Of a stretch of DNA of 64,000 nucleotides, positions 13,103-35,114 are shown piece after piece; the first letter of the stretch is position 1; every line of letters starts with the position of its first letter. Origin of the DNA: a virus; IMG/VR virus record IMGVR_UViG_3300009285_002342, positions 32,001 through 96,000 of that record; one strand, written 5' to 3'. The notes beneath the pieces were generated by a model. The model was given only the letters and a program-made list of their open reading frames with translations, was not told the DNA's origin and did no database searches. The translations under genes were made by a program, and so were the position numbers.

Positions 13103-13174
13103 TTGTCCCGAATGGATTTGAACCATCGATCTTCGGATTATCGATCCGCTGCTCTACCGCTGAGCTACGGGACA
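13103..13174 (-). tRNA. tRNA-Ile(GAT), no encoded CCA, atypical C33
   Basis: TGTCCCG TA GCTC AGCGGTA GAGC A GCGGA TCGATAA TCCGA AGATC GATGG TTCAAAT CCATT CGGGACA A. Confidence 0.88.
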
Positions 13175-20000: not shown

Positions 20001-21276
20001 CATTATATTCCCCATATTCTTCTACAAGATGTTGTTGTATTTTATCGGTTTGAGTATTATCAAAATCAAGATCAATATCCGGAAGTGATTTTCTATCTTC
20101 GGAAATAAAACGCTCAAATAAAAGATTATATTTTATCGGGTCTATCACTCTTGTTATTCCGGCGAGCATCGAAGTAAGTGAACCTGCAACCGATCCTCTT
20201 CCAGGCCCAACAGGTATCTTCGCTTCCTTACAGTATTGAATCAATTCATAGATAATAAGAAAATAACGAGAAAAGTTTTTATGCTGAATAACTTGCATTT
20301 CCCTCTTGTATCTTTCTCTATATCCTTCGGGCCATCTTTTTCCGAAAATCTCTTCGCCGCCTTTTTCGCATATTTCAGCTAAAATATCTTCGGCGGTTAA
20401 ATCCGGATTCGCCTTTTCGTATCGGGTAAGCGGAAGGGAAGGAATCATTTTAGGAACTCTAAAATCCCAACACTTCTCCGCTATTTCTACTGTTTTCGTT
20501 AAGGCTTCGTAATACTGTTTTCGATTTAAGATATTTTGTGCTTTAAATTCAGAGACCATTTCGTCTGCGGTTCTTAGATGTAAACCTTTAAAACCGAATT
20601 TCCACCTATCCGGATCTTTCCATTTCGCTTGTCTTTGCACAGCTAAAAGAACTTCTTGAGCTTCCCATTGATTTTCGTACACGTAATGGCAGTCGTTCGT
20701 CGCTATAAGCGGAATATTGTATTTTTCTGAAAGTTGTAGACAAAGGTTATTTATCTTAACTTGTGAGGCAATTTGATGTGGCATTACCTCTAAGTATATT
20801 TCTGTTTTTTCGATTAGATCTTTAAAAAGTTCTTCGCCATTAGGCAGATTAAGAAACGAAGACGAACATCCCGTAAGTAAAATTAAACCGGAAAGATCGG
20901 CGCTTCTTAGCAAGGGAAAATCTATTCTCGGTCTACGGTTAAAACCTTCTAAGTTCGCTACGGTTAGCATCCGATTAAGTTCTTGCCAGCCTTGTAGATT
21001 TTTTACTAAAACAGTAATATGTCCCCTAGATTCTTTTCCAGTAGACTTCATATCGGGTACACAATATAGCTCAGTCCCGAGAATTGGCTTTATTCCTACT
21101 TTATCGAAAGCTTTCTGCCATTTTATATGTGTATCTATATTGGAATGATCAGTGATAGCACAGGCTTTAAACCCTAATTCTACATTTCTTTTTGCGTATT
21201 GTTCCGGTTTGCCGATCCCGTCAAGGAGGCTGTATTCCCCGTGCACGTGCAAATGTATAAAATCGGAATTATTCAT
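17023..21276 (-). CDS. dnaE: DNA polymerase III alpha (PHP + polymerase) fused to a C-terminal family-4 UDG-like domain, containing an intein
   Basis: HLHVH..YSLLDG, TDH, GPGRGSVAGS, PDIDLDF, KIDVL, YGFNAAHA, IKGIG; then CELC, AEAPG, C.P, HPS of UDG4. Confidence 0.93.
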   Translation of the reverse strand: MNNSDFIHLHVHGEYSLLDGIGKPEQYAKRNVELGFKACAITDHSNIDTHIKWQKAFDKVGIKPILGTELYCVPDMKSTGKESRGHITVLVKNLQGWQELNRMLTVANLEGFNRRPRIDFPLLRSADLSGLILLTGCSSSFLNLPNGEELFKDLIEKTEIYLEVMPHQIASQVKINNLCLQLSEKYNIPLIATNDCHYVYENQWEAQEVLLAVQRQAKWKDPDRWKFGFKGLHLRTADEMVSEFKAQNILNRKQYYEALTKTVEIAEKCWDFRVPKMIPSLPLTRYEKANPDLTAEDILAEICEKGGEEIFGKRWPEGYRERYKREMQVIQHKNFSRYFLIIYELIQYCKEAKIPVGPGRGSVAGSLTSMLAGITRVIDPIKYNLLFERFISEDRKSLPDIDLDFDNTQTDKIQQHLVEEYGEYNVVGISTFMRMKSRSSVRDVGRVFELDENDIDEFAKNIEGKGHATGLIKAAAESTREGRKFAVRYPDQLRLACELEGQCRSSGRHPAGLIISGEDLRDGTRGNLVRRSDNIVINWDMVDCDEHAGLVKIDVLKLSTVVVIDEAVKIIDNLDIENIPLDDPKVYKMLSEGDTAGIFQMSGYACKKLCKEMKPDEFNDIVAIGALARPGPLESGMADLYVKRKHGEEWIPLHPKYEEITKSTYGVMAYQEQMMRSMIDLAGFSATDGYNVLKVIGKKRDPKEFEPYRISFFEGCKKLKTLNERQAEKFWQDLLGWAMYGFNAAHATSYGLLAYQTAYLKCNHPKEFLCATLTYGEDKDATISEAEKKGFRIVSPKIGISDTKKWKIKGNDLYAPFSEIKGIGETAAAKCALMKPKRLAKGFFKRQAVGTTKIEQLMEEIKAFDTIPESGPEDWNKYFQFSVSRKSIKLPVIKKIGIVPEAKECELCGLRKQATRVVLPSIGNYNALILAEAPGCITGDSLIDTAFRDKSKSLTGIPIKDLVGQKDFYVYSLDTENKKLVLGKVNRVWKTGRKKVYKVTYEWYFANGKERIRKTSSINVTENHPFLLRYSINKKDPFKGKQETVDYLSIKDGLTIGHSLQPFHRHSYRYNDIGAFNTEMFIESRFLLEQKLGRKLEDKEDCHHIDENRYNDSFDNLESLSVADHAKYHIILNNPMFNEKHREKHSKIMTSLNYRRKLSRKMSQVLKDPKIYAERLEQISKSKKKMAKTLKKKFQTDPNYYWNYLMGRKNSSFFNITDERIKELFKKRFPDEEIPIDDNHKIVAVECIGVEDVYDMEVEKYHNFAVNGIFVHNSTENEQGVGYVGDSGNLLWDELAIHGITRRQVHVANCAMCFPSKTRTPSREETDICFNKWVIPFIRSMNCKLILATGGVALYALTGREKGITKLIGEVEFVEKVNAHVVWCGHPSWVLRNRNENLEKFRTGIAIFAKIFKENAK
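17458..18471 (-). mobile_element. intein (338 aa) with HNH endonuclease
   Basis: Starts CITGDS, TENHPF block B, CHHIDENRYND.FDNL HNH, VYDMEVEKYHNFAVNGIFVHN followed by Ser. Confidence 0.92.
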
Positions 21277-22071
21277 TATCGGAAAAATCCTTTGGCTGGT
21301 ATTTTATGATTTTTAATTCTTTCAGAAGCCTTTTTGTACATCTCTTCGTCTTTTTCGATTAGGATATAGTTTCTTTTTGTATTAAGACAAGCAATACCGC
21401 TAGTACCGCTTCCTGCGCAGTTATCAAGAACCAAATCACCTTCAATCGTATATGTTTTAATTAGATATTCAAATAACGGTACTGGTTTTTGGGTAGGGTG
21501 AATGCCTCTTTCCCTAGGATATAATAAAATACTTTCTGGATATTTTGTATCGTATGTTTTTTTTAAAATCTTCTTTTCTACTATTTCCGCTAAATTTAGC
21601 ACTTTCCGAAGAACATTTGTTTGCCCCGTTTTTAATTTTTTTATATCTCGGTATCATTTTTGGAAAATAATTTATGCTCCCAAAACAAAAAACCAAAACA
21701 TCCTCGTGAACTTTCATAGGAGCGTATTTAGCAGTAACAAAATTCCCTGCAAATTTCTTATTCCAAACCCAAGAATGTTTGTAATTGTTAATATTACTCA
21801 TTACTAGCGCTGAAGTAAAAGGTTGAGATGACGTAAGGATTATCGCACCATTATCTTTAATAATTCTCCTATACTGTTTCCATAACGATTCAAAAGGAAT
21901 AATCACATCCCATTTACAGGCGGTAGTGCCGTAAGGTGGATCGCACAAAACCATATCAATACTCTTATCTTCAATATATTTCATCGCTTGAAGACAATCG
22001 GCATTAATAAGGCTGTTTACTGGCAATCGCCCTACGGATATAACCTCTTTAATATTATTAAAAATATTCAT
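21276..22071 (-). pseudogene. N6/N4 DNA methyltransferase (beta class) split by a frameshift at an A8 run
   Basis: DPPY in 21514..22071; HPTQKP and VLDNCAGSGT in 21276..21602; frames join at T8 21557-21564. Confidence 0.85.
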
Positions 22072-22678
22072 TAATTTTCGCTTTTATCAGTTCCCATTCA
22101 CTTTGATTAATATCTACTTTTGTTCTATTTTCTAACCATGAGACAAATTGTAAATTATCTAATAATAACGCCCCTCCGTTACACTTTGCTTTTATATGAT
22201 CTAAAGACGGTTTAATCCATTTATCTCTCGAAACTCGCCATTTTTCTAAAAGGGTATTAAATTTTTTGTCATTATAAAACTTTTCAATAAACTGCTTATA
22301 TATTTCCGTTGTAAATCCGTTACAATCTCGTTTTCTAGAAAGTGAACGATTAAGATATTTTAATTTTTCAATATCTTCAAAACTATTAAGCCATTCAAGC
22401 GATACATCATATTTTAAATGAGATTTCATATTTTTTAATTTAAAATCCCTTGTCATTTTTTTACCCTTTGACCACGCTTCTCTCCCTTTACAAGCTCTAC
22501 TAATATTGTTTTTATGTTCCTGCGTAAATTCTTTAAGAGTGTTCCTTCTTGTTATTTTAATCCCTTCTTTTTCTAATTTTCTTCTAATTAAATGATGATT
22601 TGTATTAAACTTCTCCGCTATCATCCTTAACGTCCATCTTTCTATTTCGTATAATCGAATTATCTCTTTGGTATTCAT
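22058..22678 (-). mobile_element. free-standing homing endonuclease (HTH + NUMOD3-like + HNH-like)
   Basis: EHKNNISRA.KGR.AW.KG, PSLDHI...GG....NLQ. Confidence 0.75.
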
Positions 22679-22720
22679 AATAATTATTCCCCCTATTAAT
22701 ATAATATCCGTACCTTATAA

Positions 22721-22825
22721 CTAAAATAGAAAGTTATATGGCAGATCACAAAGGATCATATCAATAGTCCGGTCAGGAATATTATCCATAAGTTTTAGGC
22801 AATCACCTAACCAAAATTCACTCAA
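22721..22825 (-). pseudogene. truncated 5' copy of the DNA methyltransferase gene
   Basis: (M)SEFWLGDCLKLMDNIPDRTIDMILCDLPYNFLF* vs ADCLQAMKYIEDKSIDMVLCDPPY downstream. Confidence 0.85.
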
Positions 22826-23355
22826 AATTCATTTCTCCAAATTTCCTGAAATCTACCGATAAACATGTTATTCGCTTCTTTCGAAGGAACTCCGAAATTC
22901 CAACTTAACCTTAATCTTGCTCCGCTAATATTCCAAGGCGCAGGTGGTTTCAGCATTAAAGCGTCCATTTCATTTCCTAAGATAACCGTATCCGCAAATT
23001 TTACTTCTTCGGAAAACGGATAGGTAATACCGAACCGATTAGCAATAACGATATTTAACTTTTCTTCAATCTTAGCGTATCCCTTTAGAAAATGTTTAAT
23101 CGGCTTAGGTACATCCAAAAGATACGCTTCCGAGGCATCGTGCAAAAGTCCTTGTAAAGCATATCTTTCGGGAACGTGAAAGGAGACTAAGACAGAATGC
23201 TCAGCGACCGAATAAAACTTACGGCAATGCCCATTATACCTACACTGATTCGACAAGGACCAAGCGATATCCAAAATATCTATTTCTTCTGAACTAGGAT
23301 CTAAAGGGTAGAATTGCTTGCCTGTATAAGTTTGAATCCAGTCGCCTTTTCTCAT
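22822..23355 (-). CDS. HD-domain phosphohydrolase (YfbR/5'-deoxynucleotidase-like)
   Basis: DIAWSLS..CRYNGH..YSVAEHS...LLHDASEAY..D. Confidence 0.85.
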   Translation of the reverse strand: MRKGDWIQTYTGKQFYPLDPSSEEIDILDIAWSLSNQCRYNGHCRKFYSVAEHSVLVSFHVPERYALQGLLHDASEAYLLDVPKPIKHFLKGYAKIEEKLNIVIANRFGITYPFSEEVKFADTVILGNEMDALMLKPPAPWNISGARLRLSWNFGVPSKEANNMFIGRFQEIWRNEF

Positions 23356-23843
23356 TTTCGTCTCTCCAAATACATAGAATGGGTTGAGCGAAATTCGCCG
23401 GATTCTATGCTTTCTTTAACAGATTTTTGAAACTTTCTTATTGCGTCCATATTACTCTCGCAATTAATGGTTAATTTCGGTTCTACAATATTATTCCAAT
23501 AAAGCCACCAAGTTGGAGATATATACCAAGAATACTTATCCGCCTTATATAGCATACGCAAACCACAATATCCAGAATGTGAACAATGAGCGGCTGTAAA
23601 AATATAAGCTTTTCTTCCAAAAAACCGACCTGCTACTTTAGCTCCTAATTCCCAATGCTTTTTCTTTTGTTCATAATCGCTTAAATAATCTTTACCTATA
23701 TGCCCGATATCGTGGAGAAAGATACAGATAATTTGCCAAAATTTAGGCCAACTCCCGTAAAGTTTTCTCCACGATATTAGGACTAGGAAAGAATGGAAAA
23801 CAGAATGGCATCCAATTAGGATACTTACCGTTCCTTCCTTCAC
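23352..23843 (-). CDS. HD-domain protein
   Basis: H...H, LHDIGH, H..LGA, H, ADK. Confidence 0.65.
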   Translation of the reverse strand: MKEGTVSILIGCHSVFHSFLVLISWRKLYGSWPKFWQIICIFLHDIGHIGKDYLSDYEQKKKHWELGAKVAGRFFGRKAYIFTAAHCSHSGYCGLRMLYKADKYSWYISPTWWLYWNNIVEPKLTINCESNMDAIRKFQKSVKESIESGEFRSTHSMYLERRK

Positions 23844-23847
23844 GATC

Positions 23848-24918
23848 TTATCCCCTTCCCCTTTTCTTCGGTTCGGGTTTTACTTCGGTTTCCACGGGTT
23901 CTTCGGTCGTCGGAGCTTCTTCCTCGTCTGCAATAAGACAGACGGCGTGTCTGAAATTGTCCCCTTCGAAAAGCAAAGCACCGTCAGATACCGTCGCTTT
24001 ATTCGCCTTCGGAATAATCGAAGAGAGATGTTCAGGGGAAGCGACAAATTCAATCTTTTTCCCTTTGTACTTTATCGGGACCGGTTCTATAGCTTTTCCT
24101 TTTATGTTTTCGCACTTCGCAATGATTTCCCAGTTATCTACCGTAATCGTTACCCGCTTCAACTTATTCGATTCTTCGGCTAAAACCTGTACCCTGGACA
24201 AGGCTGCACAAAGTTCTACCGGAAAATCAATCTTCTTTCCTTCTACGTTCAGATATTCGTCTACGTCTTCAAAGTTATCGTCTATCAGCGTATGCGCAAA
24301 GATAGCCCCGTCGTGATTTCGGTAGACGGCTTGCGAATCCGTAATCAGAATTTCCTTTAGCCCGAAGGTAGAAAGAAAGTGTGCGATTTTTGAGGGAATA
24401 AGAATCGGTTTTTCTAAATCGATTTCTTCGGAAAGAATCCTTTCGGTAATACGGAAGTTATCGGAAGACAAAATCCTTTTTCCATCTACGGAAAGACATG
24501 TTAAAACGCCCATAGACGCTTGATCACTCGCGGAGAAGGTACAAAAACCTAATGCTTCGTCGAAATCCTCCGGTAACGGTCGCCAATCCTCCTCTTCAAA
24601 ATCGAAAGAAGGTATATCTTTCGCTTCTACCATCTTCAACCATACTTCCGTCTTTCCTGCCTTAACGTGTAACTCCTTTTCGTCCGCGTCAATTTCCATG
24701 TCTTCCTGGCTGAATTTGTTAAGCAATCTCGTAAATTCATCCGCAGGAATCACCGCCTTTAGATCGGTATCCAAAGGTACGCAAATCGTGATTTCTTCGC
24801 CAGCTCCGATAAGTTTATCATTATCGAAGATTAGCATTCCTGAAAGTTCGGAAATTTTACCGTCGCTTAAAGCCGGTTTTACCTTTTCAATCGCACTTAA
24901 AAGTTCTTTTCGTTTCAT
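23848..24918 (-). CDS. dnaN: DNA polymerase III beta-like sliding clamp
   Basis: RKELLSAIEKV start, SSDNFRI (ATDG.RL-like), three-domain length, acidic. Confidence 0.8.
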   Translation of the reverse strand: MKRKELLSAIEKVKPALSDGKISELSGMLIFDNDKLIGAGEEITICVPLDTDLKAVIPADEFTRLLNKFSQEDMEIDADEKELHVKAGKTEVWLKMVEAKDIPSFDFEEEDWRPLPEDFDEALGFCTFSASDQASMGVLTCLSVDGKRILSSDNFRITERILSEEIDLEKPILIPSKIAHFLSTFGLKEILITDSQAVYRNHDGAIFAHTLIDDNFEDVDEYLNVEGKKIDFPVELCAALSRVQVLAEESNKLKRVTITVDNWEIIAKCENIKGKAIEPVPIKYKGKKIEFVASPEHLSSIIPKANKATVSDGALLFEGDNFRHAVCLIADEEEAPTTEEPVETEVKPEPKKRGRG

Positions 24919-25643
24919 TCTTTCTCCTTCCGTTTAAGTTTTCTCTCCTTTAGTGGTCTTACTGGAATTATTCCGAATCCTAGATTTATTTGTTTTACTT
25001 TAGTCAAATCTTCATATCTCTTAGATTCACCTTTAGGATAATGTAAAATCGGAAATCTAAGATGTTTCCTTGCTTCCTTTGCCCATCTTTTATCGCCATG
25101 AAAATAAATATATCTATGTTTAGGTTTTTGAGGAATTCTTTCTTCTATTTTTCCTTCGTATCTTTCACCGCGAATTTTTCCAGTACAAGATCTTCGATGA
25201 ATTATTTTCCCTTCAGTAGTAAGATATTTCCCTTCGTTAAAAGATCCTTCTCCGGTATAAATCCAATTTAGAGCTTGATAAACATAACCTACATGCCCTT
25301 GATTTTGGTCTGCGTAACTCACAAGGATAAGAGGTTTAGGTAGCAATTTTATTGCATTAGCAGCAAAAAAGGTGGCAAGATTTTTTCTTTCTGAATAATC
25401 AATACAAAGCCGGTTAAATTCTAAAACAGTATCTTTATAATCTTTTCCGCAAACAGAAGCCCCTAAATTCCTATTAGGGCAATATCCAAAAGTCGCTACA
25501 CCTATCGTTCTATTTTTTTCTTTTTCGACCAACGCAAATCCATAAATATTCACTGTAGGCGCTCTACCTGCATAATGCTTTTTTAAAAGCCATTCTTTTG
25601 CTGCCAAACATGGAATCGAAACTATCCGGAATTTATCTTTCAT
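24915..25643 (-). CDS. Mom-like DNA (adenine) modification enzyme
   Basis: KKHYAGR, GVATFG, LEFNRL, SYADQNQGHVGYVYQALNWIYTG; likely start ATG 25643 after AGGAAGG. Confidence 0.8.
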   Translation of the reverse strand: MKDKFRIVSIPCLAAKEWLLKKHYAGRAPTVNIYGFALVEKEKNRTIGVATFGYCPNRNLGASVCGKDYKDTVLEFNRLCIDYSERKNLATFFAANAIKLLPKPLILVSYADQNQGHVGYVYQALNWIYTGEGSFNEGKYLTTEGKIIHRRSCTGKIRGERYEGKIEERIPQKPKHRYIYFHGDKRWAKEARKHLRFPILHYPKGESKRYEDLTKVKQINLGFGIIPVRPLKERKLKRKEKE

Positions 25644-25645
25644 AT

Positions 25646-25740
25646 CCTTCCTACGCTTCGTAGAATCGCTTAGGTTAAACGATCTATCGCTAACCCATAA
25701 TACCCTACGGGTAAAATATTTGAACGCCTTAAAAACGATT
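25646..25740. repeat. dispersed bipartite palindromic element, copy 2
   Basis: CCTTCCTACGCTTCGTAGAATCGCTTAGGTTAAACGATCTA-N35-GAACGCCTTAAAAACGATT. Confidence 0.88.
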
Positions 25741-25773
25741 AAGCGAAGAATCCGCTTCGTTTCCCTTTTTTCT

Positions 25774-25956
25774 TCAATTCTGACATTTGGTAAGTTTTCC
25801 TTGACAACCTTTAGCACCGCATACATTAGGCAAGACCCAACGAAACTTTTTATTTTTCGCTACCCAAAAACCTTGCTTCGAACCGCATATTTCACATTCA
25901 TACCAAGTAGTCTGTTTCTTCTCTTCTTCAGTTTCTTCGTCCCTACACATTTGCAT
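25774..25956 (-). CDS. small zinc-ribbon protein upstream of the mom-like gene
   Basis: CEIC and C....C; AGGAG SD before MQMC. Confidence 0.55.
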   Translation of the reverse strand: MQMCRDEETEEEKKQTTWYECEICGSKQGFWVAKNKKFRWVLPNVCGAKGCQGKLTKCQN

Positions 25957-25967
25957 TTTTAACTCCT

Positions 25968-26093
25968 TTACATACCCCAATATGCCGGCGAAGTCACGCA
26001 CATATCAGCTATTCCGGAAGGTAGGGATTTTAAGACATCTATATTGTGCCCTAAATATATTTTAGAATCACCGAATTCACGATAAGGTTTCAT
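25968..26093 (-). pseudogene. 41-aa N-terminal stub of an N4/N6 DNA methyltransferase
   Basis: MKPYREFGDSKIYLGHNIDVLKSLPSGIADMCVTSPAYWGM* (TSPPYW-like motif). Confidence 0.75.
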
Positions 26094-26851
26094 ATTTTTG
26101 ATCTTACCTTCCGAATAGCAATAGGATTCATTTTTTTCTTAAACGCACGTAAAGACTCGTTCCCTAAATCCCCACAATCATTTACGTATTTTCCGTTTCC
26201 GTATTCTGCCACTTCCCGATAAAACAGCAACCTCATATATTCAGCTAAGTACGGTTCCGCTAAACAAATTGAATAGCGGAAAATTAGATATTTGAAATTC
26301 TCATCCCAAACATTTAAGCCGACAACTTTCTTCCTCTCCATGTCTATCAGAACTTTTCGATTTTTACCGTTTAGACAAAAATCTAACAATACTTCCGCAT
26401 CTTCAATTTGTCTAAAACGCAAAGTCCATTCCGTTAGAAGATCGATAATCGGCGTTACAGGATGCCCCACTACGGCACGAAGATAAGTTAATTTCGGATT
26501 TCGGGCAACGAACTTCCGACTATTTTTACGAAACACTGCCCACTCCCCTCCTTTCATAGTGAGAAAATCGGCAGGATCGTAAATATACTCATAGTCAAGA
26601 AATTCGTTGCCCAACGGGCATTCCGGAAAGTCAGCCCAAAAAGGAGAGTCTTTCCAAAGTGGATTGCCCATTTTTCGGATAACCGGAAACAGTATTTGTT
26701 TTCCCTTATCTTCAACCCAAACTTCGCTTCCGGTATCGTAAACACGAAATTCGGCCCTATCGAAATATTCCTCCGAGCACCAGCAATTCGGCGTTATTCC
26801 GTTAAGGCGAAGAATTTCTAAATATTCTTTCGGACTAATCAGTTTTTTCAT
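26090..26851 (-). CDS. DUF2156 / phosphatidylglycerol lysyltransferase C-terminal-like (GNAT-fold) transferase
   Basis: DYEYIY...L.MKG..W..FRKN..KF and YVND.GDLG..SLR.FK..MNP. Confidence 0.7.
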   Translation of the reverse strand: MKKLISPKEYLEILRLNGITPNCWCSEEYFDRAEFRVYDTGSEVWVEDKGKQILFPVIRKMGNPLWKDSPFWADFPECPLGNEFLDYEYIYDPADFLTMKGGEWAVFRKNSRKFVARNPKLTYLRAVVGHPVTPIIDLLTEWTLRFRQIEDAEVLLDFCLNGKNRKVLIDMERKKVVGLNVWDENFKYLIFRYSICLAEPYLAEYMRLLFYREVAEYGNGKYVNDCGDLGNESLRAFKKKMNPIAIRKVRSKI

Positions 26852-27699
26852 TATCTTCGAAGAAACCCCGTTCCTTTTTGCCTTTTAACGGTTTCTTTTC
26901 TTTCTTCGCCTTCTCTGCTATCAGCCGTTGAATCAGCTTCTTCGACACCCCGCCCGATTTCCTCGATTTCCCGCCCATTTTCTTCCTCCTGTATTGATTC
27001 TAAGAAACATCCTTCGTCATACAGACAACCCGCGACAATTCCTTTCATTCCAAACTTATCCCCTTCGATTACTGCAAAATCATTCTTCTTACCGAAGAAA
27101 AACTTTACAGTATTCGAAAATGTAAAAAGGGCTAAAAGATCGGCGGTCCTTAATCCTATCGGCCCGAAGTCTTCTTTTATCGTCTTCCCCCATGATACCC
27201 CGAAACCCTCTTTCACTTGCGTTAATTCTACGGTAGAACCGGAATAGATGTCCCTTTGTAGAAGAAGCGGTTTCCGATTCTTAGCTGAAACCTCAATATG
27301 ACTAAGGCTTTCTTCTAAAAGAGAAAGAACTTCGGTATGCAAATCCAAACGGTTATCGCCTTTTTTCTTATAAAGTTTCCGAAAAGAATCATCTATTTCG
27401 TCAAAAGTCCGCTTAGAAGTAGCACAAGATTTTTTTCTTACGAAACCAGCGGCGTTTTGCGTAAATACAATTTTCCCGTCTATTAACTTAAAATCCGGCG
27501 AATCGTACTGATTAGATTCCATACCGATCTTTTCAGGAAATTCTTCTTTCGAATCAAAATGCAGAATAACTGTATTGTCGAAGTTGGCTATGTAGATAGA
27601 CTTATTTCCTAAGAAGACTTCGTTTCTTAAATGCCCATTTTGAGTTAAGACTACTGCTATAGAAAGTATTTTTTCGGTCATTTGATTAATCATAAACAA
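26851..27699 (-). CDS. second, divergent sliding-clamp-like protein (tentative)
   Basis: Clamp-like alpha/beta pattern (IYIANFDNTVIL; L.SLSHIEV; PIGLRTADL), acidic tail ending GTGFLRR. Confidence 0.4.
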   Translation of the reverse strand: MFMINQMTEKILSIAVVLTQNGHLRNEVFLGNKSIYIANFDNTVILHFDSKEEFPEKIGMESNQYDSPDFKLIDGKIVFTQNAAGFVRKKSCATSKRTFDEIDDSFRKLYKKKGDNRLDLHTEVLSLLEESLSHIEVSAKNRKPLLLQRDIYSGSTVELTQVKEGFGVSWGKTIKEDFGPIGLRTADLLALFTFSNTVKFFFGKKNDFAVIEGDKFGMKGIVAGCLYDEGCFLESIQEEENGREIEEIGRGVEEADSTADSREGEERKETVKRQKGTGFLRR

Positions 27700-29099
27700 T
27701 CCTCCAAAATTCTTATTCTAAAATCGTCTTCCTTTTCATATTTCCAGATTATCCTTCCTTCGGAATCATTCCCCACCGGTACTATCCCCCTTCCCCAATC
27801 CAGCGAATAAGAAGGATTTCCGCTAAGGTTCCACAATCCAAAAAATTCCTGCTTAAGATTTTCAGAAAGGAAACCCCCGTTTTCTTCTACATACTTTTCG
27901 TATTCATCCCAAGTTACCGCCCGTCCTTTCTGGTTTTTTATGTACCAGATCGCAGACACAGAACTTCCGCGATTAAATTTTGAATCCGGAAAGAAATCCC
28001 CCACTTCGCAACATATCTCGTTTCCGTTTTCCGCTACATTCCCTAAGTCGAAAGTAGAACAACGGAATCCCTTTTCTCTAAAAAGGTCCATAAACTTTCC
28101 TAGAAGAAGGGAACCAAGGGCTTGACTATCGGAAGTAAGCAGATACATCCGGTTAAAATCATATCCTAAATTCGTAAAGTTATTACGGATACCTGGATTG
28201 TTGGCGGAATAGGAATATGTATCGAAGGTAATGTGTCGAACGCCGGCCGCATAAACTTCTTCAATATATTTTTCGACGAATTCCTTTTCGTCATTTATGA
28301 AAACCATCCACGGCTCTATCCTAGCCACAACCCTTATCCCAGCAGAAGATAAAATGCGCATCGCCTCTAACCGCTTTTTGTAAGAAGGCGCTCCCGGCTC
28401 TATCGCTTTTAAGATCCGGTTGTCTGCGGAAATCAAAGTAACGTGTACTGCAGCTTTAGAAGGATTATCCGCTAAAGCGGAAAGGTAAGGTTCTTCGGCA
28501 GGTAAATCCGATTTAGTATTTATCATTATCGGATAATTTCTGTCTTTTAGATGATTCAAAAACGCTAACGCTATTCCGTTCTTCCTTTCTGCGTAAATAA
28601 AATCTTCGAATCGAATTCCTAACCGAATCGGAATACGGTTTTTTATCGCTCTTTGAATATCGGAAGCATTTAACGGAAGTCCCTTAGCGACAACCTCAAA
28701 ATGCCTATCCAGTTCCGCACGAAAATAATCAGGCGGGCAAGATCGTATTCCCATTTCCTCAGTTCTATCCCAAAAGGAAGTGTACAATGTCGCTTTTAGT
28801 ATATCCGCGAAGCAATATTGGCAACGGAAAGGGCACGCCTTTGCGTCATAGCAATCCGCATTGAGGGGCATCGGGCAAGCGGCTGCCCGAAGACTAACCT
28901 CAATAAAATGTTTAATCCTTTCCGTGTTAAATATCTTCTCTTTGTTTTGCCACTTTTGCCTTATCAGATTAAATTCATGATAATTTGTTTTTCTGCCTTT
29001 AATCTTAACTTCGGATTTCAATTTGTCTTTAACGGAAGTTAGAATCTTCTGTCTGGGAATCAGTTTAGAAACTAAAGATCGCAATTCGTAATAATTCAT
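27690..29099 (-). CDS. radical SAM enzyme, spore-photoproduct-lyase-like
   Basis: CPFRCQYC, INTKS, IEPGAPS..KRL, ARIEP, late CC. Confidence 0.88.
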   Translation of the reverse strand: MNYYELRSLVSKLIPRQKILTSVKDKLKSEVKIKGRKTNYHEFNLIRQKWQNKEKIFNTERIKHFIEVSLRAAACPMPLNADCYDAKACPFRCQYCFADILKATLYTSFWDRTEEMGIRSCPPDYFRAELDRHFEVVAKGLPLNASDIQRAIKNRIPIRLGIRFEDFIYAERKNGIALAFLNHLKDRNYPIMINTKSDLPAEEPYLSALADNPSKAAVHVTLISADNRILKAIEPGAPSYKKRLEAMRILSSAGIRVVARIEPWMVFINDEKEFVEKYIEEVYAAGVRHITFDTYSYSANNPGIRNNFTNLGYDFNRMYLLTSDSQALGSLLLGKFMDLFREKGFRCSTFDLGNVAENGNEICCEVGDFFPDSKFNRGSSVSAIWYIKNQKGRAVTWDEYEKYVEENGGFLSENLKQEFFGLWNLSGNPSYSLDWGRGIVPVGNDSEGRIIWKYEKEDDFRIRILEDCL

Positions 29100-30079
29100 A
29101 ATGGATAGTTACTTTCTATTTCGGCAATTTCGTCATCGGCAAGTTCTATTTTTACGGATTTAAGATTGTCTTTTAGATGCTCTAAATTATTTGTAGCTGG
29201 AATTGGAAGGACACCTTTCTTGCTTAAAAGCCAAGATAATGCAATTTGTGGCGATTTGCCTCCCTTTGATTTTGCTATTTTGTCTAAAATTGGTTTGTGT
29301 AATTTCTTATATGATTGCCCCAAAGGGCTATAGGCAATAACCAATATCCCCCTTTCTTGACAATACGGCAATAAAAATTCTTCTATACGCCTATCAATAA
29401 GCGAATAACTGACTTGAACGGAACGTATAACGTCACCAGAAAAATCAGAAAGAAATCTTTGCATTGATTCAATCATATCTACCGAACAATTACTAAGACC
29501 TATAGAAAGAATCTTGCCCTTTTTACGCAATCCAACTAAAGTTTTACCTAAAACCTCGTCCGAATACTTATCGTTAGGAAAGTGAATTTGCAAATGGCTA
29601 ACCCTTCCTAACTTTTCTAAAGATCTTGAAACGGTAGAAGTAAGTGCAGAAGATGACATATGATCCCTTCGAACTTTTGTAGCTACGGGAATTGAAATGT
29701 TTTTTAGTGCTTTCCCCAATTCTGTTTCTACCTTACCGTATCCGTATCCTTCTGCGGTATCTATCAATACAGCGCCGAAATTTACCGCTTCTTCTATAAG
29801 ACTATAATCATATTTCCAACCATATGTCCCGAAACCAATACCGCATTTACATTCGATTTCCATTGGTTTAAAAGAAATATCCTGGTGGTCTAAAAGTTTT
29901 TCTAAACGCCTAACCGAATATTGAAGTAATTCTTTTCTTTTAATCAAAAGCGCAGAAGATAAAGACATATAGCGTAGATTAAGTCCCCACATCGATCCGT
30001 GCAAAACATCTGAAGCCCCTGCGCTTAATTTCTTATCAAAAGAAAAGTTTTTTATTTCGTCAAGTATTTTTAACCACAC
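29096..30079 (-). CDS. aldo/keto reductase with N-terminal extension
   Basis: GFGT, IDTAEGYG, ATK, QIHFP, IGLSN, IAYSPLG, QIALSW, PIP. Confidence 0.9.
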   Translation of the reverse strand: MWLKILDEIKNFSFDKKLSAGASDVLHGSMWGLNLRYMSLSSALLIKRKELLQYSVRRLEKLLDHQDISFKPMEIECKCGIGFGTYGWKYDYSLIEEAVNFGAVLIDTAEGYGYGKVETELGKALKNISIPVATKVRRDHMSSSALTSTVSRSLEKLGRVSHLQIHFPNDKYSDEVLGKTLVGLRKKGKILSIGLSNCSVDMIESMQRFLSDFSGDVIRSVQVSYSLIDRRIEEFLLPYCQERGILVIAYSPLGQSYKKLHKPILDKIAKSKGGKSPQIALSWLLSKKGVLPIPATNNLEHLKDNLKSVKIELADDEIAEIESNYPL

Positions 30080-30789
30080 AATCCAAAACCTTTCAATTTT
30101 GCTTTCTTTGGTTTGAATTCTTCATGCCCCCTAGAAACAAACAAATCGGAAGGTTGAATATGCGTAATCTTTCCTTTTTCATTTCCATACAAAACCATAG
30201 CGGCATTCATAAAAGCGGAAACAGCTATGAGATTTTTCCCAACAATCGGTTTTGTTTCCTTAGCCAACAATTCGTAGTATTCCTCTTCGGTTTTAACGCC
30301 ATAATGACGGAGATTCCCGAACTTAAAACCAAAACAAGTGCTATCGGCTATTATAACCCATTTTGCTGTTTTCGCTACTCTTGACAATACTTCGCTATGT
30401 CCAGGCAACTTACGCAAAGTAAAGGCGTCAAAATCCAAAATTAGAATGTCCGATTCCGGCGGCGTCCAAGAATAAACATCGTTATTCAATACAGTGTGGT
30501 TTGGAAAATTACTTTTCAAAAAACCACAACAATTTTCGTCCTTATCGTTAATAATCAATTCACAATCAGTCCATCTTGTTAACGAAACAGCGCACCAAAA
30601 ACCAGATCTAGCTATAGCGTCTACGATTTTTGGTTTCTTTCCACAATTTATTACAGACAAAACTGCATCAAGCGTTCTACAAGTTTCCGCTACATCACGG
30701 TACGGAACAACTTGGCTAGGTGTCCTTATCTTTCTTTCTGTCCCTGATTCGGGAATGTCAAGTTTTATTTTTCCTACGGAATAAATCAT
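30070..30789 (-). CDS. SAM-dependent methyltransferase-like Rossmann protein
   Basis: IVDAIARSG (motif I-like), INDKD, NDV, ILILDF. Confidence 0.5.
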   Translation of the reverse strand: MIYSVGKIKLDIPESGTERKIRTPSQVVPYRDVAETCRTLDAVLSVINCGKKPKIVDAIARSGFWCAVSLTRWTDCELIINDKDENCCGFLKSNFPNHTVLNNDVYSWTPPESDILILDFDAFTLRKLPGHSEVLSRVAKTAKWVIIADSTCFGFKFGNLRHYGVKTEEEYYELLAKETKPIVGKNLIAVSAFMNAAMVLYGNEKGKITHIQPSDLFVSRGHEEFKPKKAKLKGFGLCG

Positions 30790-31856
30790 AGCCCACTATC
30801 CTTCATTGTGTAATGATTTTTTGATTTACCGCACATAATCAATTCTGCGTTTTTTAAATCTTCTTTTGTCCCAATTCCTTCCCAGGTAGTTTCTAAAATA
30901 GTTTTTCTATCTAAACCTTCTTGCAGCAATTTTCTCCAATTGTGAGTGTTAAATTTGAAAGCATTTTTTATGTCTATTCCGCAACAAGTGTTAAGATTAG
31001 ATACCCAATTTTTCGGAAGGTTGACAAAATCCGGACATCCAAGATTTATATTTTCCTTGTCTGCAATTTCGCACAATTCCTTCTGAACAGGTTTCCATTT
31101 TTTATCCTGATTAGCGTCCCATATTTTTTCAATATCTAAACCTATATCCAAAAGACGTTTTGCAGTATAAGGATTCAAATGTAAATTGTAGATATTGTAA
31201 GACATAAAACCATAAGACTTGATAAGTTTAAGAATATCTTTAAATTGCGAAACAGTATGATACCCAGGAATAAAAGGTTCCCCCCTTATTCCAACATTTA
31301 ACCCCAATCTCAACCATTCTTTTCCTATCATTAAACGATCTTTAATCGGAGAGGTTCTTTTCCTTTCGAATATTTCCCAATCAGATTCACAGCCAGCAGT
31401 TATTTCGATTAAAAAACAGAAGCAATCTTTTTTTGTCTTAACAAATAAACCCGTATCCCTTAAAGCATTAGAAATGTATCTTGAACAAATTACGAAAGGC
31501 CAAGATAAATCTATCAGAACCTTAACGCTGTTTCTAGTTACTTTGTGCTGATTTTCTATCGATTGATAAGGATCAGCTTTCCTTCCTAAAAATATTGCCT
31601 TTTTCTTTTTTAACGCAATAGCTAAGGGAGATTTTGGATCTTTTGATCTTTGAGAATCTGTTAATTTTTTACAGATTTGTTCTGGATTTGCTATCCGTTG
31701 TTCTTCGCCCCAAATCTTGTTAAGGTTTCTGCCTAAGCAGTGAAAACAATCTGCTTCACAAGCCCAATAAGATTCAAGAGTCAACGGAAGTGGACAATTT
31801 AGATGGGTTTTTCTAATACAGAAAGGATTTTTATATTCTTTCAAGTTATTCACCAA
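30786..31856 (-). CDS. radical SAM enzyme, SPL-like (second)
   Basis: CPLP, CEADCFHC, ADPYQ, RGEPFIPG, TCCG. Confidence 0.85.
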   Translation of the reverse strand: MVNNLKEYKNPFCIRKTHLNCPLPLTLESYWACEADCFHCLGRNLNKIWGEEQRIANPEQICKKLTDSQRSKDPKSPLAIALKKKKAIFLGRKADPYQSIENQHKVTRNSVKVLIDLSWPFVICSRYISNALRDTGLFVKTKKDCFCFLIEITAGCESDWEIFERKRTSPIKDRLMIGKEWLRLGLNVGIRGEPFIPGYHTVSQFKDILKLIKSYGFMSYNIYNLHLNPYTAKRLLDIGLDIEKIWDANQDKKWKPVQKELCEIADKENINLGCPDFVNLPKNWVSNLNTCCGIDIKNAFKFNTHNWRKLLQEGLDRKTILETTWEGIGTKEDLKNAELIMCGKSKNHYTMKDSGL

Positions 31857-31861
31857 GAATT

Positions 31862-31897
31862 AATTAGGGACTCGGTGAATTTTCCGAGTCCCTAATT
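31862..31897 (-). terminator. 14-bp hairpin (terminator/attenuator)
   Basis: AATTAGGGACTCGG...CCGAGTCCCTAATT immediately after the 31912 stop; weak U-tract. Confidence 0.6.
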
Positions 31898-31911
31898 TCA
31901 GAAGGGATTTG

Positions 31912-32586
31912 TTAGACAGGGGCTACAGTCTTGGGATCAATCTTGGATACCTTACCGAATCCTATTGCACAAGGCATCATTACATCGACAAGATGTTTCG
32001 ACTGTTTAAGGTTATCCTTACCGCCGCCAGAAACATAATCGTTATTGGCGAGTTCGGCCAAATCATCAATGGAAATTTGACACTTGAGATTATTGACGAC
32101 ATCAATGAACGATTCGGTTCTTGTCTTCTTGGAAGACGTTGCCTTCGGTGCTTTCGGTTCCTTCGGCGGCTTAGGCGGTTTTTCAGCCTTTGCCAGTTTT
32201 TCTACCTTTTCGGTTTTCGCGGGTCTACCACGTTTTCCCTTTTGAACAGGCGGATCTTTCGGAAGCTTCTCTCTGGCCAAAAGGATTGCTGTCTTTGCAT
32301 CGTCCAGTCCCAACTCCCCGAGCAGCTCAACGGTTTCGTCGCTCAGATTCGCATCCCCCGGCGTCTTCTCCGGATCGATTAGTTCCGCTGCTTCCGTAAC
32401 CAAAGCGGTCAACTTCTCGATCAGCGCATCTTCGCCTTCCGCCTCTGCCTTCGCGATTGCTTCCTTTCGCGCCTTTCCCTTTACCCCGTCCTCTACCAAA
32501 CACCCGTAGGTAATGTCGATAGGCGGTTTAAGAACAAGAATCCGATTCATGTCCTCTGCGGCGTTTTGCAATACTTTAAGTTCCAT
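31912..32586 (-). CDS. Lys/Pro/Ala-rich nucleoid-like protein with AT-hook
   Basis: KRGRP, PKPPKEPKAPK; own promoter and hairpin. Confidence 0.6.
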   Translation of the reverse strand: MELKVLQNAAEDMNRILVLKPPIDITYGCLVEDGVKGKARKEAIAKAEAEGEDALIEKLTALVTEAAELIDPEKTPGDANLSDETVELLGELGLDDAKTAILLAREKLPKDPPVQKGKRGRPAKTEKVEKLAKAEKPPKPPKEPKAPKATSSKKTRTESFIDVVNNLKCQISIDDLAELANNDYVSGGGKDNLKQSKHLVDVMMPCAIGFGKVSKIDPKTVAPV

Positions 32587-32648
32587 ACCGTTTCCTCCTT
32601 TTTCCGTTAAAGTTTTTTATCGGTAAAAAATTTACCCTATCCAATGAT

Positions 32649-32677
32649 ATTATAACGAAAAAATTAAATATTTTAAA
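32649..32677 (-). promoter_or_regulatory. promoter, class II (TTTAAA-N17-TATAAT)
   Basis: Exact spacing; repeated architecture. Confidence 0.75.
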
Positions 32678-32734
32678 GGCGCACGGCGATTTTTTTATAA
32701 AAAAATTAAATAAAAAATTCCGGGAGGTTACGCC

Positions 32735-33540
32735 TTATTTTCCCCAATGCTTGCTTTCAACCCCCCCAATAATATCAAATCCTTCCTTCGTATTATAAAC
32801 TCCCTTCGCATCATACCAATTTTGCAAAAATTCTTCAAACGTATTTTCTATCGCCCTACCTTTTAATTTCCCGTTCCAAAGTTCTAACATTGCTCTTTCA
32901 AACGCTCTGTAAATTCCGGGCCATCTATCCATATGTTTTTTAATAACTTTGGGTCTTCCACATATAAACGGACAAACAACACAACCAACTCTATCGAAAC
33001 CCTGATCGTAAAGTTCGCAATAAGGTAAATTATATTTTTCAATATATTCCCAAATTGCCCATTCTCCCCAATTAAAAATTGGTTTATATAGAGTCTGTTT
33101 TTTAAAATACCGGTCTATTCTTGGTCTATTCGCTCTTTTGGCAGATTCTTCTTTTCTAATACCCATCAATCTTCTCTCAAGAGAAACCTCTTTAGTTGGT
33201 TTTTTCTTTAACTCGTCACAACACCACCTTGAAAACTTTGTAGGAAATCCTCTTATCGGAATCAATTCATAAAATGATTTTTCAGGTTTTTCCATATTAC
33301 ATCGGAATGATTCCTTTTTATAAACTTTACAACTTCCGGCGGATCTATTCCGGTAACGGAATAATAAGTCTGAAATTTTACGCCTGAACGTTTAGTTAAA
33401 TCTTTTAAGACGCAAGAATCCTTTCCACCGGAAAATCCTAAAAAATAACCTTCCAGAGGTTCATTTTTTTGGATAAAGGTTATCGCTTCCTCTTCGTATT
33501 TTTCCAGAAAATCTATAAACCCTTTAGTTGTTTTTCTCAT
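32735..33540 (-). pseudogene. PAPS-reductase-family protein split by a frameshift at an A5 run
   Basis: FSGGKDS PP-loop in 33262..33540; RWCC.ELK, GIRKEES..R, PI.NW, RVGCVVCP in 32735..33295; junction 33287-33291. Confidence 0.85.
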
Positions 33541-35114
33541 TACGCTTCCTTTTTAGCGGTCATTAGGTAACTGTCTAAATATGGCCTTCCGGTACGCAAA
33601 GACTGTAAGATCATAATTTCCGAAGAAGATACGGTTTCGCCGTGTCGCCGTTTAGAAATCGAAGCCCGAATTATTCCGGCGTCTTTTTCCCAAGAAGACT
33701 GATTAAAAGAAGCCCCATCGTCTAATTCGTGAATCTTATCTATCGCTTCCCCCCACGTTCCTCTTCCTACCTGTTTTCCGCTACGCATTGTATTAGATTG
33801 CGAAGCGGAAGCCACTAAGCAGTTTAATTCTTGCGCTACTGCTTTATGTTCCCTCCATATCTTTCCGATAGAAACCCTAGGGTCTTTCGGAATTGCCCAT
33901 TTGAATTTATCCGCATAATCCGTTACGATTAATCCCGGTACTATCCCTTCGTAGTAAACCAGATTCTTTACCGCAGCTACCATATCTTCGGTTGTATATT
34001 TCCCGTTCGGAAATTCGATTAAACAGAACTTACCGGCTTTACGTAGCATCCCGCTTCGATCCAATACCGCTTGTTTCCGTAAGGCTACGTTCGGATCTAA
34101 TAAACCTGGATCTTCGGTTTCCGTCCACCACGCAGTCGGTTCGAATTCATTCCTGCCTTTACAGGCTGTGCAAACTTTATATCCCCTAGGCATATCTTTA
34201 AAAGACGGACGAAGTTTGTCTTTAAGTAACGCTACGCCACATCCATTCGCACACGTCCCGAGTTGATTTTTCTTACAATCCCAAATCGGTATTAAAAGTT
34301 TACCGTGTCTTTCGATAGGCGCGGAAGTAAGGGATTGCCATATTCTTTTTACCATCTTCTTCGTAGACATTTCCATAGAAAAGAATACAACGTTGTGCCC
34401 CGAGAAGACGGCTAACTGCGCCATATACGTTAACCACCAAGTCTTTCCTACTCCGGATTCGGCTTGTACCGCGAAAAGGAAACCCCTTTCTAACGGCCCT
34501 AAAGCATTTCCTAAAGCACCCGGAAGCCTCATAATAATATCCGGATTTTCGTCTTCCGGCGTTAAGGATTCTACAATACAATCAATATCCCGTAAAGGAT
34601 CTACGGAAAGGATTAACGGCTTCGCTGGTTTCTCGTATTCTTTAACGCAGTTTTCCCCTTCGTCCAACTTCCCGGCAATAATCGCTGCGGTAAGTTTATC
34701 GCGAAGGTTCTTTAGACCGGCAGCTCGGAAGTGTTTTTCTGCTTCTGATATTATGTAATCCACATTAAAGGTTTCCGAAAGTTCGTATTCATCCGAAATC
34801 GAAGCTAAAAAATCCTCTAATAATTCCGCGTCTTCTTCGGGAACAGAAGCTTTGTGCGTAAGGTAGATATCTTCAATATGTCTAACCGGCGCTTTATTGA
34901 ACTTTTCGAAATACTCTAAGCACCATTGCGCTATTTTCCGTGCATAGTTAGACTGAAAATATTCCAGTTTACAAAGTGGTTTTACGCCTTTCGCGAATCG
35001 GTCAGAAGTTACTAAGCCGATACAAATCATTCTTTCGATTTTCGCGTCTACTTCGGTCGGCCTGCGCCGGATACCCGTACCGTCCGGACCGGCTAAAATC
35101 ATCGCTCCGCTCAT
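33540..35114 (-). CDS. dnaB: DnaB-like replicative helicase with Cys-rich insertion
   Basis: AESGVGKT, FSMEM, TDYAD, ASQ, KRRHG. Confidence 0.85.
   Translation of the reverse strand: MSGAMILAGPDGTGIRRRPTEVDAKIERMICIGLVTSDRFAKGVKPLCKLEYFQSNYARKIAQWCLEYFEKFNKAPVRHIEDIYLTHKASVPEEDAELLEDFLASISDEYELSETFNVDYIISEAEKHFRAAGLKNLRDKLTAAIIAGKLDEGENCVKEYEKPAKPLILSVDPLRDIDCIVESLTPEDENPDIIMRLPGALGNALGPLERGFLFAVQAESGVGKTWWLTYMAQLAVFSGHNVVFFSMEMSTKKMVKRIWQSLTSAPIERHGKLLIPIWDCKKNQLGTCANGCGVALLKDKLRPSFKDMPRGYKVCTACKGRNEFEPTAWWTETEDPGLLDPNVALRKQAVLDRSGMLRKAGKFCLIEFPNGKYTTEDMVAAVKNLVYYEGIVPGLIVTDYADKFKWAIPKDPRVSIGKIWREHKAVAQELNCLVASASQSNTMRSGKQVGRGTWGEAIDKIHELDDGASFNQSSWEKDAGIIRASISKRRHGETVSSSEIMILQSLRTGRPYLDSYLMTAKKEA

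Follow-up and report, generated by a model that had tools for sequence, protein, structure and literature searches.

We analysed a 64,000-nucleotide stretch of DNA from an uncultured phage (the window; bases 32001-96000 of the 115-kb IMG/VR record IMGVR_UViG_3300009285_002342; CheckV completeness 84%). Inside its replication operon lies a conserved gene module. The core genes of this module encode two spore photoproduct lyase (SPL)-like radical S-adenosylmethionine (SAM) enzymes, named rSAM2 and rSAM1, a PCNA-fold protein that we call the hub, a 47-amino-acid (aa) peptide and a tandem GNAT protein, together with one swappable tailoring set. We read this core, with a probability of about 0.6, as a kinase-free and probably tRNA-fed pathway, coupled to replication, by which bases of the phage's own DNA receive a group derived from an amino acid. 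Any single step of the proposed pathway is much less certain.

Hypermodified phage DNA withstands restriction enzymes and CRISPR nucleases, and the modification pathways are a source of enzymes for DNA chemistry. To our knowledge, every worked-out pathway of the amino-acid type begins with 5-hydroxymethyl pyrimidines, a DNA kinase and an amino acid:DNA transferase.

Gene order and conservation of the module

The module genes and their downstream border are as follows.

30786-31856, minus strand: rSAM2, SPL-like, with the cluster motif CEADCFHC; NCBIfam PA0069 match at 9e-12, under the cut-off.
30070-30789, minus strand: methyltransferase-like (MT-like) Rossmann protein with a KGFGL-type C-terminal tail; weak trans-aconitate methyltransferase match (2e-4).
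29096-30079, minus strand: aldo-keto reductase (AKR), Pfam Aldo_ket_red 1e-42; it occupies the slot of the relatives' pyridoxal phosphate (PLP) enzyme, which resembles gp52 of phage M6.
27690-29099, minus strand: rSAM1, 469 aa, SPL-like, with the cluster motif CPFRCQYC; Radical_SAM 34.2 bits (cut-off 29.5).
26851-27699, minus strand: PCNA-fold hub, an open reading frame (ORF) of 282 aa with no sequence family; the fold covers residues 1-227.
26835-26978, minus strand: tiny gene, 47 aa, with a strong ribosome-binding site (AGGAGG 7 nt upstream of the ATG).
26090-26851, minus strand: tandem GNAT, 253 aa, of the DUF2156/MprF-C/FemX kind; putative aminoacyl-tRNA-dependent transferase.
23848-24918, minus strand: DnaN beta-clamp (phrog_947, 2e-30), the downstream border of the module in every lineage.

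These genes belong to a co-oriented minus-strand row that runs from 35114 to 17023, from DnaB (33540-35114) to the Pol III alpha gene (17023-21276). The original prediction had described a co-oriented block with overlapping start and stop codons, and most genes of the row are indeed coupled. The overlaps are 1-10 nt long and were seen at rSAM2/MT-like, MT-like/AKR, AKR/rSAM1, rSAM1/PCNA-fold, PCNA-fold/GNAT, Mom/DnaN and HD1/HD2. Profile searches agreed with the gene list given for the block: a PAPS-reductase-like protein, two radical SAM enzymes, an AKR, Mom, DnaN, two HD proteins and an N6/N4 DNA methyltransferase were all recovered. The PAPS reductase and methylase genes, however, are frameshifted, and the 47-aa gene, a winged-helix-like gene and a NUMOD3 endonuclease had been overlooked. 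The block had also been placed between two clamp genes. It does lie within the DnaB-DnaN stretch, but the second "clamp gene" is itself a member of the module.

Relatives were taken from 44 IMG/VR loci with a GNAT homologue (30-47% identity), and all of their ORFs were clustered. The core order recurs in the 44 loci at 30-60% protein identity, and this recurrence is far beyond chance. Lineages were counted after dereplication at 95%, with at least 7 kb of upstream sequence, which left 29. The order rSAM2 (or the third paralogue rSAM3), tailoring genes, rSAM1, PCNA-fold protein, tiny peptide and tandem GNAT is kept in the DnaB-DnaN interval of 28 of them. Radical SAM, GNAT and clamp-like genes, for which a gene-neighbourhood search had been proposed, do co-occur in phages. 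In full, the recurring order is DnaB, winged-helix-like protein, rSAM2, tailoring genes, rSAM1, PCNA-fold protein, GNAT, DnaN, polymerase, clamp loader, SSB, RecA and FEN; the polymerase is either PolA fused to a uracil-DNA glycosylase (UDG) domain or DnaE. The set always lies between DnaB and DnaN/polymerase/clamp loader/SSB/RecA/FEN, and DnaN follows the GNAT gene directly or closely in 46 of 46 loci.

Counted by gene, DnaN is present in all 29 lineages, the PCNA-fold protein in 28 and rSAM1 in 27, with one further split copy. rSAM2 is present in 24 lineages and rSAM3 in three, and an rSAM2-like gene lies just outside the locus in one more. rSAM1, the clamp-like protein and the DUF2156 protein had been predicted to be the resident core, with AKR, methyltransferase and rSAM2 as a later add-on. 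The first three are core genes. Since rSAM2 or rSAM3 is present in 28 of the 29 lineages, rSAM2 is also core and not a late addition.

Hundreds of uncultured phages carry the module; it was found in none of the cultured phages. The 12-kb DNA of the block gave no megablast match among 50,697 cultured-phage records. When cultured phages were searched by tblastn, GNAT and rSAM2 gave no match, rSAM1 gave one short match in an unannotated faecal contig, and AKR matched only generic reductases. The only real match in 185,579 species genomes is a phage contig binned in a Melioribacteraceae metagenome-assembled genome, so the module is phage-only. This contig (JALNXG010000054.1, 27,227 bp; Ignavibacteriota; locus L031) is either a host hint or a binning artefact. 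The stretch analysed here is present only in contigs of one groundwater study.

Radical SAM enzymes and the M6-type finishing enzyme

The CxxxCxxC cluster motif is invariant in both radical SAM families. Every named NCBIfam family scores far under its cut-off on rSAM1 and rSAM2; the Rv2578c/PA0069 matches of rSAM1 are weak, and the Radical_SAM model is reached, weakly, by 4 of 12 members of the rSAM2 family. The two enzymes are paralogues (hhalign probability 98%, E 2e-14) and have in common, beyond the cluster motif, an upstream Cys and a C-terminal Cys-Cys motif. rSAM1 additionally has an invariant N-terminal peptide (K34 G35 R36 K37 .. Y40 .. F43. L45) and four more conserved Cys residues, with a mean column identity of 59% across 21 lineages. 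The ESM Atlas clusters nearest to rSAM1 (157, 66 and 82 members) are 91-95% viral. No usable PDB match came from sequence or profile searches with rSAM1, rSAM2, GNAT or hub.

Two lineages have a longer rSAM1 of 598-615 aa (L019:6895-8688 and L025:1880-3724), in which an insertion or intein is possible. In L002/L047, rSAM1 is present as two ORFs (L002:9983-11294).

In phage M6, glycine is placed on 5-hydroxymethyl-deoxyuridine (5-hmdU) by the kinase gp54 and the amino acid:DNA transferase (ADDT) gp51, then isomerised by the SPL-like radical SAM enzyme gp53 and decarboxylated by the PLP enzyme gp52. All of these steps take place on polymeric DNA, and the end product in M6/Yuavirus is 5-(2-aminoethyl)-deoxyuridine (5-NedU) (PMC8989533). 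We located the four M6 genes by motif and Pfam and compared them with the module. The PLP family of the relatives matches M6 gp52 over its full length (hhalign probability 100%, E 1e-71, 33% identity). The PLP protein of one relative (L005) had full-length tblastn matches in 66 cultured-phage records, M6 and Yua among them; these come from phages of Pseudomonas (52), Bordetella (9) and a few of Rhizobium, Stenotrophomonas, Sphaerotilus and Pseudanabaena. The window has no gp52-like gene; AKR stands in its place. rSAM2 matches M6 gp53 with a probability of 96% (E 3e-9) over only 172 columns of the radical SAM core, and rSAM1 with 73% (E 3e-5), also in the radical SAM core only. The C-terminal Cys patterns of the two enzymes differ from that of gp53.

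The original prediction had recognised neither a 5hmU-DNA kinase nor an amino acid:DNA transferase, and no PurZ. Family searches and searches with the M6 genes led to the same result. No 5-hmdU DNA kinase (HMUDK, PF18748) or gp54-like gene and no ADDT (PF18724) or gp51-like gene was found in this genome or in four complete relatives, in a search that had no positive control of its own; the PF18748 model does match M6 gp54 itself. PurZ and ThyX were not found in this genome. No hydroxymethylase of the thymidylate-synthase family was found in the four complete relatives, and the same search was positive in 10 of 14 control genomes and on a divergent copy in this phage. With gp52-type finishing present and the entry enzymes not found, the module looks like an M6-type finish attached to a start of another kind.

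The divergent copy is a thymidylate-synthase-family gene at 4311-5087 (Pfam 22.9 bits, catalytic P-C retained), in the minus-strand region 2963-5087, where it adjoins a NUMOD4/HNH homing endonuclease and a dCMP deaminase. The family match continues beyond stop codons, which suggests an interrupted gene. We considered this gene and the dCMP deaminase (2963-5087) as the entry step of the module and rejected them: the family is missing from the four complete relatives, and the module is therefore independent of it. Together with a dNMP phosphatase (22822-23355), these genes may mean that the phage alters its pyrimidine pool too.

Tailoring genes and a shared C-terminal tail

The slot between rSAM2 and rSAM1 is filled in different ways. 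The gp52-like PLP enzyme is present in 13 of the 29 lineages and the MT-like protein in nine; AKR is present in six, always with MT-like. DUF362 occurs in three lineages, with rSAM3, a fourth radical SAM enzyme occurs in three, and some lineages have none of these. MT-like plus AKR, as in the window, is thus one of several alternative tailoring sets for one slot. The alignment of the MT-like family shows a GxG motif in some members, which is degenerate in the window copy, and an invariant D-F-x-x-F. The fourth radical SAM paralogue (484-520 aa) follows an ORF of 85-89 aa and lies between GNAT and DnaN (L015, L018 and L021).

Among 60 radical SAM proteins, nine have a C-terminal tail of the form [KR]-G-[FL]-[FLG]-[FLIW], and each of these nine is of the rSAM2/3 type; MT-like proteins have the tail as well. 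Of 402 other ORFs, just four carry it: three N6_N4 DNA methylases, the window's own included, and one MT-like fragment. The module enzymes thus share a putative docking tail with DNA-acting enzymes. The partner of the tail may be DnaN or the hub. The rSAM2, PLP and MT-like families are basic, with median isoelectric points (pI) of 8.7-9.3 (rSAM2, 9.1).

The tandem GNAT protein

The original prediction had called this protein a DUF2156/MprF-C-like GNAT, and the predicted tandem GNAT fold agrees with the call. The AlphaFold2 model has a mean predicted local distance difference test (pLDDT) of 83. Foldseek matched it to the DUF2156 structure 2HQY (E 1e-11; template modelling (TM) score 0.70-0.74) and, with E values of 1e-7 to 1e-5, to L-PGS, MprF C-domains, the aminoacyl-tRNA peptide synthases Sbb17/Sba18 and FemX. 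The fold also matches viral N-myristoyltransferases and FemAB proteins. At the level of sequence, the protein scores 18.6 bits with PF09924 (LPG_synthase_C; gathering threshold 27.5), and PF09924 is on record for about 12 of 120 homologues. The family forms at least 238 metagenome clusters, none of them named. A lipid or cell-wall precursor is unlikely to be the acceptor.

No fused GNAT forms were seen among longer proteins, which is weak evidence, and no dedicated tRNA gene near the module is consistent across loci. One complete phage of 64 kb (IMGVR_UViG_3300031692_000001; loci L043/L044) has the GNAT gene between DnaB and DnaN and lacks rSAM1, rSAM2, the PCNA-fold gene and the tiny peptide. 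This naturally occurring "GNAT only" phage could help to show what the transferase does by itself.

The 47-residue peptide

In a search for ORFs of 20-110 aa, 30 of 31 loci yielded the tiny gene (44-79 aa), which in every case immediately precedes the GNAT gene or follows the PCNA-fold gene. It is missing only from the GNAT-only phage. The N-terminus M-G-G-K-S-R-K-x-G is invariant in 29 lineages and is followed by S12 and L15; the middle is Lys-rich. Close to the C-terminus, almost every copy carries a G-[FL]-[FLG] or L-F motif (of the G-F-F type in the window copy), similar to the tail of the module enzymes. The reading frame of the gene differs from that of the PCNA-fold ORF, whose 3' end it overlaps; this explains the "disordered basic tail" of that ORF. 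An [ND]GR[KE] motif and a KGF-type end, taken at one stage as features of the hub tail, were rejected as frame shadows of the tiny gene.

Radical SAM enzymes beside a small peptide are the classic pattern for peptides that are made by ribosomes and modified after translation (RiPPs), and the true substrate of the module could be the 47-aa peptide. In that case the GNAT would lengthen or acylate the Gly-Gly N-terminus of the peptide, in the manner of FemX, L/F-transferase or N-myristoyltransferase, and the radical SAM enzymes would process it in a RiPP-like way. At the replisome, the mature peptide would bind a clamp, inhibit the clamp of the host or act as a cofactor. The invariant N-terminus, the clamp-motif-like C-terminus and the matches of the GNAT fold to N-myristoyltransferases and FemAB fit this explanation, as does the all-or-none occurrence of the peptide with the radical SAM enzymes and the hub. 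The radical SAM enzymes, however, belong to the SPL-like, DNA-associated clan and are not of the SPASM/RiPP type, and their PLP partner is in the family of gp52, which works on an amino-acid adduct in DNA. The strong basicity of rSAM2, PLP and MT-like, the tail that is common to DNA methylases and the presence of GNAT without the peptide in a complete phage also speak for another substrate. We consider the peptide an unlikely substrate, although among the rival explanations it is the leading one.

The PCNA-fold hub and its predicted docking with rSAM1

The predicted structure of the hub has pLDDT values above 90 across most of the fold and contains the two-domain clamp fold with a peptide-binding pocket. 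Foldseek matched it to PCNA (E 2e-8), and VIA gave a Z score of 14.1 to 9-1-1, PCNA and T4 gp45, with a clean drop to unrelated folds. Residues D41, T43, H134, C225 and Y227 are invariant, and all are within the predicted peptide site. The "clamp-like" label of the original prediction therefore holds for the two-domain PCNA fold, but the basic inner helices of a sliding clamp are absent. The four would-be channel helices are neutral or acidic (mean net charge -1.4, -0.8, -1.4 and 0 in 21 lineages). We therefore use the name PCNA-fold hub rather than that of a proven sliding clamp. The median pI of the hub is 5.6.

We modelled rSAM1, GNAT and hub residues 1-270 as a complex, each given as a 21-lineage alignment. 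The rSAM1-hub pair had an interface score (interaction prediction score from aligned errors, ipSAE) of 0.70 (0.69, 0.71 and 0.70 in three runs), compared with 0.00 for the best of three controls. Of 80 solved complexes, 58 attain the mark that it passed, as do 2 of 110 mismatched pairs; these counts are a rough guide here because our own alignments and three chains were used. The runs agree in at least 31% of contacts, with a partner pLDDT of at least 72. In the model, rSAM1 residues 36-50, from the invariant K-G-R-K-x-N-Y-x-Q-F-N-L stretch, lie on hub residues 38-45, 97-109, 133-134 and 221-229, and the hub side includes all five invariant residues. The N-terminal peptide of rSAM1 is thus predicted to bind the PCNA-interacting peptide (PIP)-type site of the hub. 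We know of no precedent for a radical SAM enzyme as a clamp client.

A hub that lacks basic channel helices and a GNAT that is acidic would also fit enzymes that act on a soluble or RNA substrate (nucleotide pool, tRNA or a small metabolite), with the PCNA-fold protein only as a scaffold. The position of the module in the replisome operon is fixed in all lineages, gp52 and gp53 work on polymeric DNA (PMC8989533), and the putative docking tail is common to DNA methylases. Given these observations, we think a soluble or RNA substrate quite improbable.

Proposed pathway

In the pathway that we favour, decoration of the phage's own DNA bases, the tandem GNAT would draw on host aminoacyl-tRNA for its amino acid, in the way that Mom uses Gly-tRNA, and would deliver the amino acid to a base, or first to the invariant Gly-Gly end of the tiny peptide. 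The link to the base would be formed or rearranged by the two SPL-like radical SAM enzymes. As the searches gave no hydroxymethylase, 5-hmdU kinase or ADDT, entry is perhaps radical activation of a canonical base. The adduct would be finished by decarboxylation in lineages with the gp52-like enzyme, and by methylation and carbonyl reduction through MT-like and AKR in this phage. Hub and peptide would keep the enzymes at newly made DNA, and the product would shield the DNA from host nucleases.

A more specific version is possible but rather doubtful. In it, the conjugate is made directly from canonical bases: a hub-docked radical SAM enzyme would activate the base (e.g. the thymine methyl), the FemX-type GNAT would feed in the tRNA amino acid, possibly via the 47-aa carrier, and the hub would hold the enzymes at the fork. 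If this were true, DNA hypermodification would have its first radical entry route and base-modifying enzymes their first dedicated clamp-type hub, and the GNAT family would join Mom as the second to link tRNA with DNA chemistry.

A new DNA-hypermodification route had been claimed in the original prediction for the whole 12-kb block. The gp52-type decarboxylase of the relatives, the likeness of rSAM2 to gp53, the GNAT fold and the predicted docking argue for such a route in the module, but not for the block as a whole.

Several points weigh against base decoration. The hub, without basic channel helices, may not ride on DNA. Its docking pocket is that of PIP peptides, so the score of the rSAM1-hub model may partly reflect likeness to solved PCNA-peptide complexes. 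The GNAT chain made no confident contact with hub or rSAM1 in the complex model; its family is acidic (median pI 5.7), and it occurs alone in one complete phage. Because the window itself has no gp52-like gene, the link to M6 runs through the relatives and through the weaker, core-only match of rSAM2 to gp53. The missing positive control weakens the absence of ADDT and HMUDK, and the invariant tiny peptide offers a possible non-DNA acceptor. What the analysis shows is the folds, the all-or-none linkage in the replisome operon, the homology to gp52 and more distantly to gp53, and the common tail; the chemistry is proposed from these.

Spore photoproduct lyase is the founding member of the SPL-like radical SAM clan (PMC8989533), and the replisome operon places the module beside RecA, FEN and UDG-fused polymerases. 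PCNA-docked SPL-like lyases could thus reverse a lesion or adduct during replication, so that the module would repair DNA or remove a host-imposed mark. This would leave the tRNA-type transferase, the gp52-like decarboxylase, AKR, MT-like and the swappability of the tailoring genes unexplained, and groundwater and sediment phages receive little UV. Repair is therefore very improbable.

Genes private to this phage

The 12-kb block contains further genes beside the module.

32735-33295 and 33262-33540, minus strand: PAPS-reductase-like gene; Pfam PAPS_reduct on both halves; absent from relatives.
24915-25826, minus strand: Mom-family enzyme; Pfam Mom (PF25680) 114.6 bits against 27.1, 6e-33; phrog_1384 2e-50.
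22822-23843, minus strand: two HD phosphohydrolases, HD1 and HD2; HD2 (22822-23355) is of the dNMP phosphatase family (phrog_318, 7e-66).
22058-22678: NUMOD3 homing endonuclease, which separates HD2 from the methylase.
21276-22071, minus strand: N6/N4 DNA methyltransferase; Pfam N6_N4_Mtase on both halves; ends AKGFFR.

The Mom-family enzyme covers profile positions 2-202 of 202 and has 29% identity to Mu Mom. Equivalents of Mu R111, H58/Y59 and Y159 are kept and an insertion of similar length is present; W48 and W181 are not kept, and Mu S124 falls in an alignment gap. By its sequence, this is a known type of enzyme that modifies adenine on its own; it is separate from the module and, among the relatives, private to this phage. 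Within the 5' part of its ORF, upstream of the Pfam domain, a segment of about 94 nt (25655-25748) recurs inverted, with 14 differences, about 170 nt before the start of the window. Public assemblies break at this repeat. It may be a regulatory element, with the true Mom start later.

The PAPS-reductase-like gene has a one-base frameshift at an A5 run (33262-33295, minus strand), and the N6/N4 methylase has one at an A8 run (21514-21602, minus strand). In a second sample from the groundwater study, the contigs show both frameshifts as well. They are therefore not random assembly errors and point to real pseudogenes, slippage sites or phase-variable genes. HD2 was found in one other related locus only.

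All genes of the block are co-oriented and many have overlapping start and stop codons, as one would expect if the whole 12 kb were a single pathway building one base, but Mom, PAPS reductase, HD1 and the methylase have no counterpart in the 44 related loci, two of these genes are frameshifted in two samples, the homing endonuclease splits HD2 from the methylase and Mom is self-sufficient in phage Mu (PMC13219725), which leaves this explanation barely any probability. The absence of the private genes from the relatives makes the block a conserved module with private additions, and not the one island that had been described. Mom and the N6/N4 methylase are separate extra layers. The window combines the MT-like/AKR version of the module with a Mom gene and a frameshifted methylase; with these stacked, the DNA of this phage may carry several marks.

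Neighbouring replication genes

31912-32586, minus strand: 224-aa protein with a small helical N-domain, a charged linker and a winged-helix-like C-domain.

A local profile search placed the family of this protein between DnaB and the first radical SAM gene in 25 loci. R156 and N192 of the C-domain are invariant, and the linker is of low complexity, with about 60 acidic residues at most (L035). It had no family match, and the structural leads were weak only. The protein may belong to replication rather than to the module. Nothing convincing was seen in the way of repeats flanking the block.

The Pol III alpha gene (17023-21276, minus strand) contains an intein with an HNH endonuclease, followed by a C-terminal domain of the UDG superfamily. 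In 30 related loci the polymerase is instead of family A, with an N-terminal UDG domain (e.g. L009:11839-14427). As the domain is on both Pol III alpha and family A polymerases, the fusion of replicase and UDG is a trait of the clade. A single tRNA-Ile(GAT) gene (13102-13174, minus strand) lies between SSB-like and RecA-like genes.

Comparison with known systems

Amino-acid-type DNA hypermodification is already known. What is new in the module is a putatively different entry, together with a hub of its own, a tiny peptide and a tRNA-type transferase that belongs to a second GNAT family. If our reading holds, the module would provide a new entry reaction into modified DNA and a new client class for clamp-like proteins in a compact cassette. 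A literature search, which did not cover the survey of Iyer et al. 2013, found no paper joining radical SAM, clamp/PCNA, DUF2156 and phage DNA modification.

Compared with the M6 pathway, the relatives have a full-length gp52 homologue beside rSAM2, and rSAM1 and rSAM2 are SPL-like as is gp53. The proposed logic is also alike: an amino acid on a base, radical and PLP sculpting, and swappable finishing enzymes. The differences are that the module has two radical SAM paralogues instead of one, that no ADDT, HMUDK or hydroxymethylase was found, and that it lies inside the replisome operon. Tandem GNAT, PCNA-fold hub and tiny peptide are present here and absent from M6, and the window has MT-like and AKR instead of the decarboxylase.

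Mom of phage Mu is a GNAT that moves glycine from Gly-tRNA(Gly) to adenine N6 in duplex DNA (PMC13219725), and is thus a precedent for a GNAT fold with a charged tRNA donor and a DNA acceptor; the window also holds a Mom-family gene. In contrast to Mom, which acts alone, the module transferase is a tandem GNAT of the DUF2156/FemX kind and is linked to radical SAM enzymes, hub and peptide. Its tandem-GNAT fold is like that of the MprF C-domain, FemX and Sbb17 (DUF2156, PF09924; TM 0.5-0.74), and some relatives reach the Pfam model. Unlike them, it is soluble, 240-290 aa long, phage-only and encoded in a replication operon, with 9-17% identity to the solved members.

The hub resembles PCNA, 9-1-1 and T4 gp45 in its two-domain fold (Z 13-14) and in its predicted binding of a peptide in the PIP pocket. 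Compared with these sliding clamps, its would-be DNA-facing helices are neutral or acidic, and replication in this phage has its own DnaN and clamp loader.

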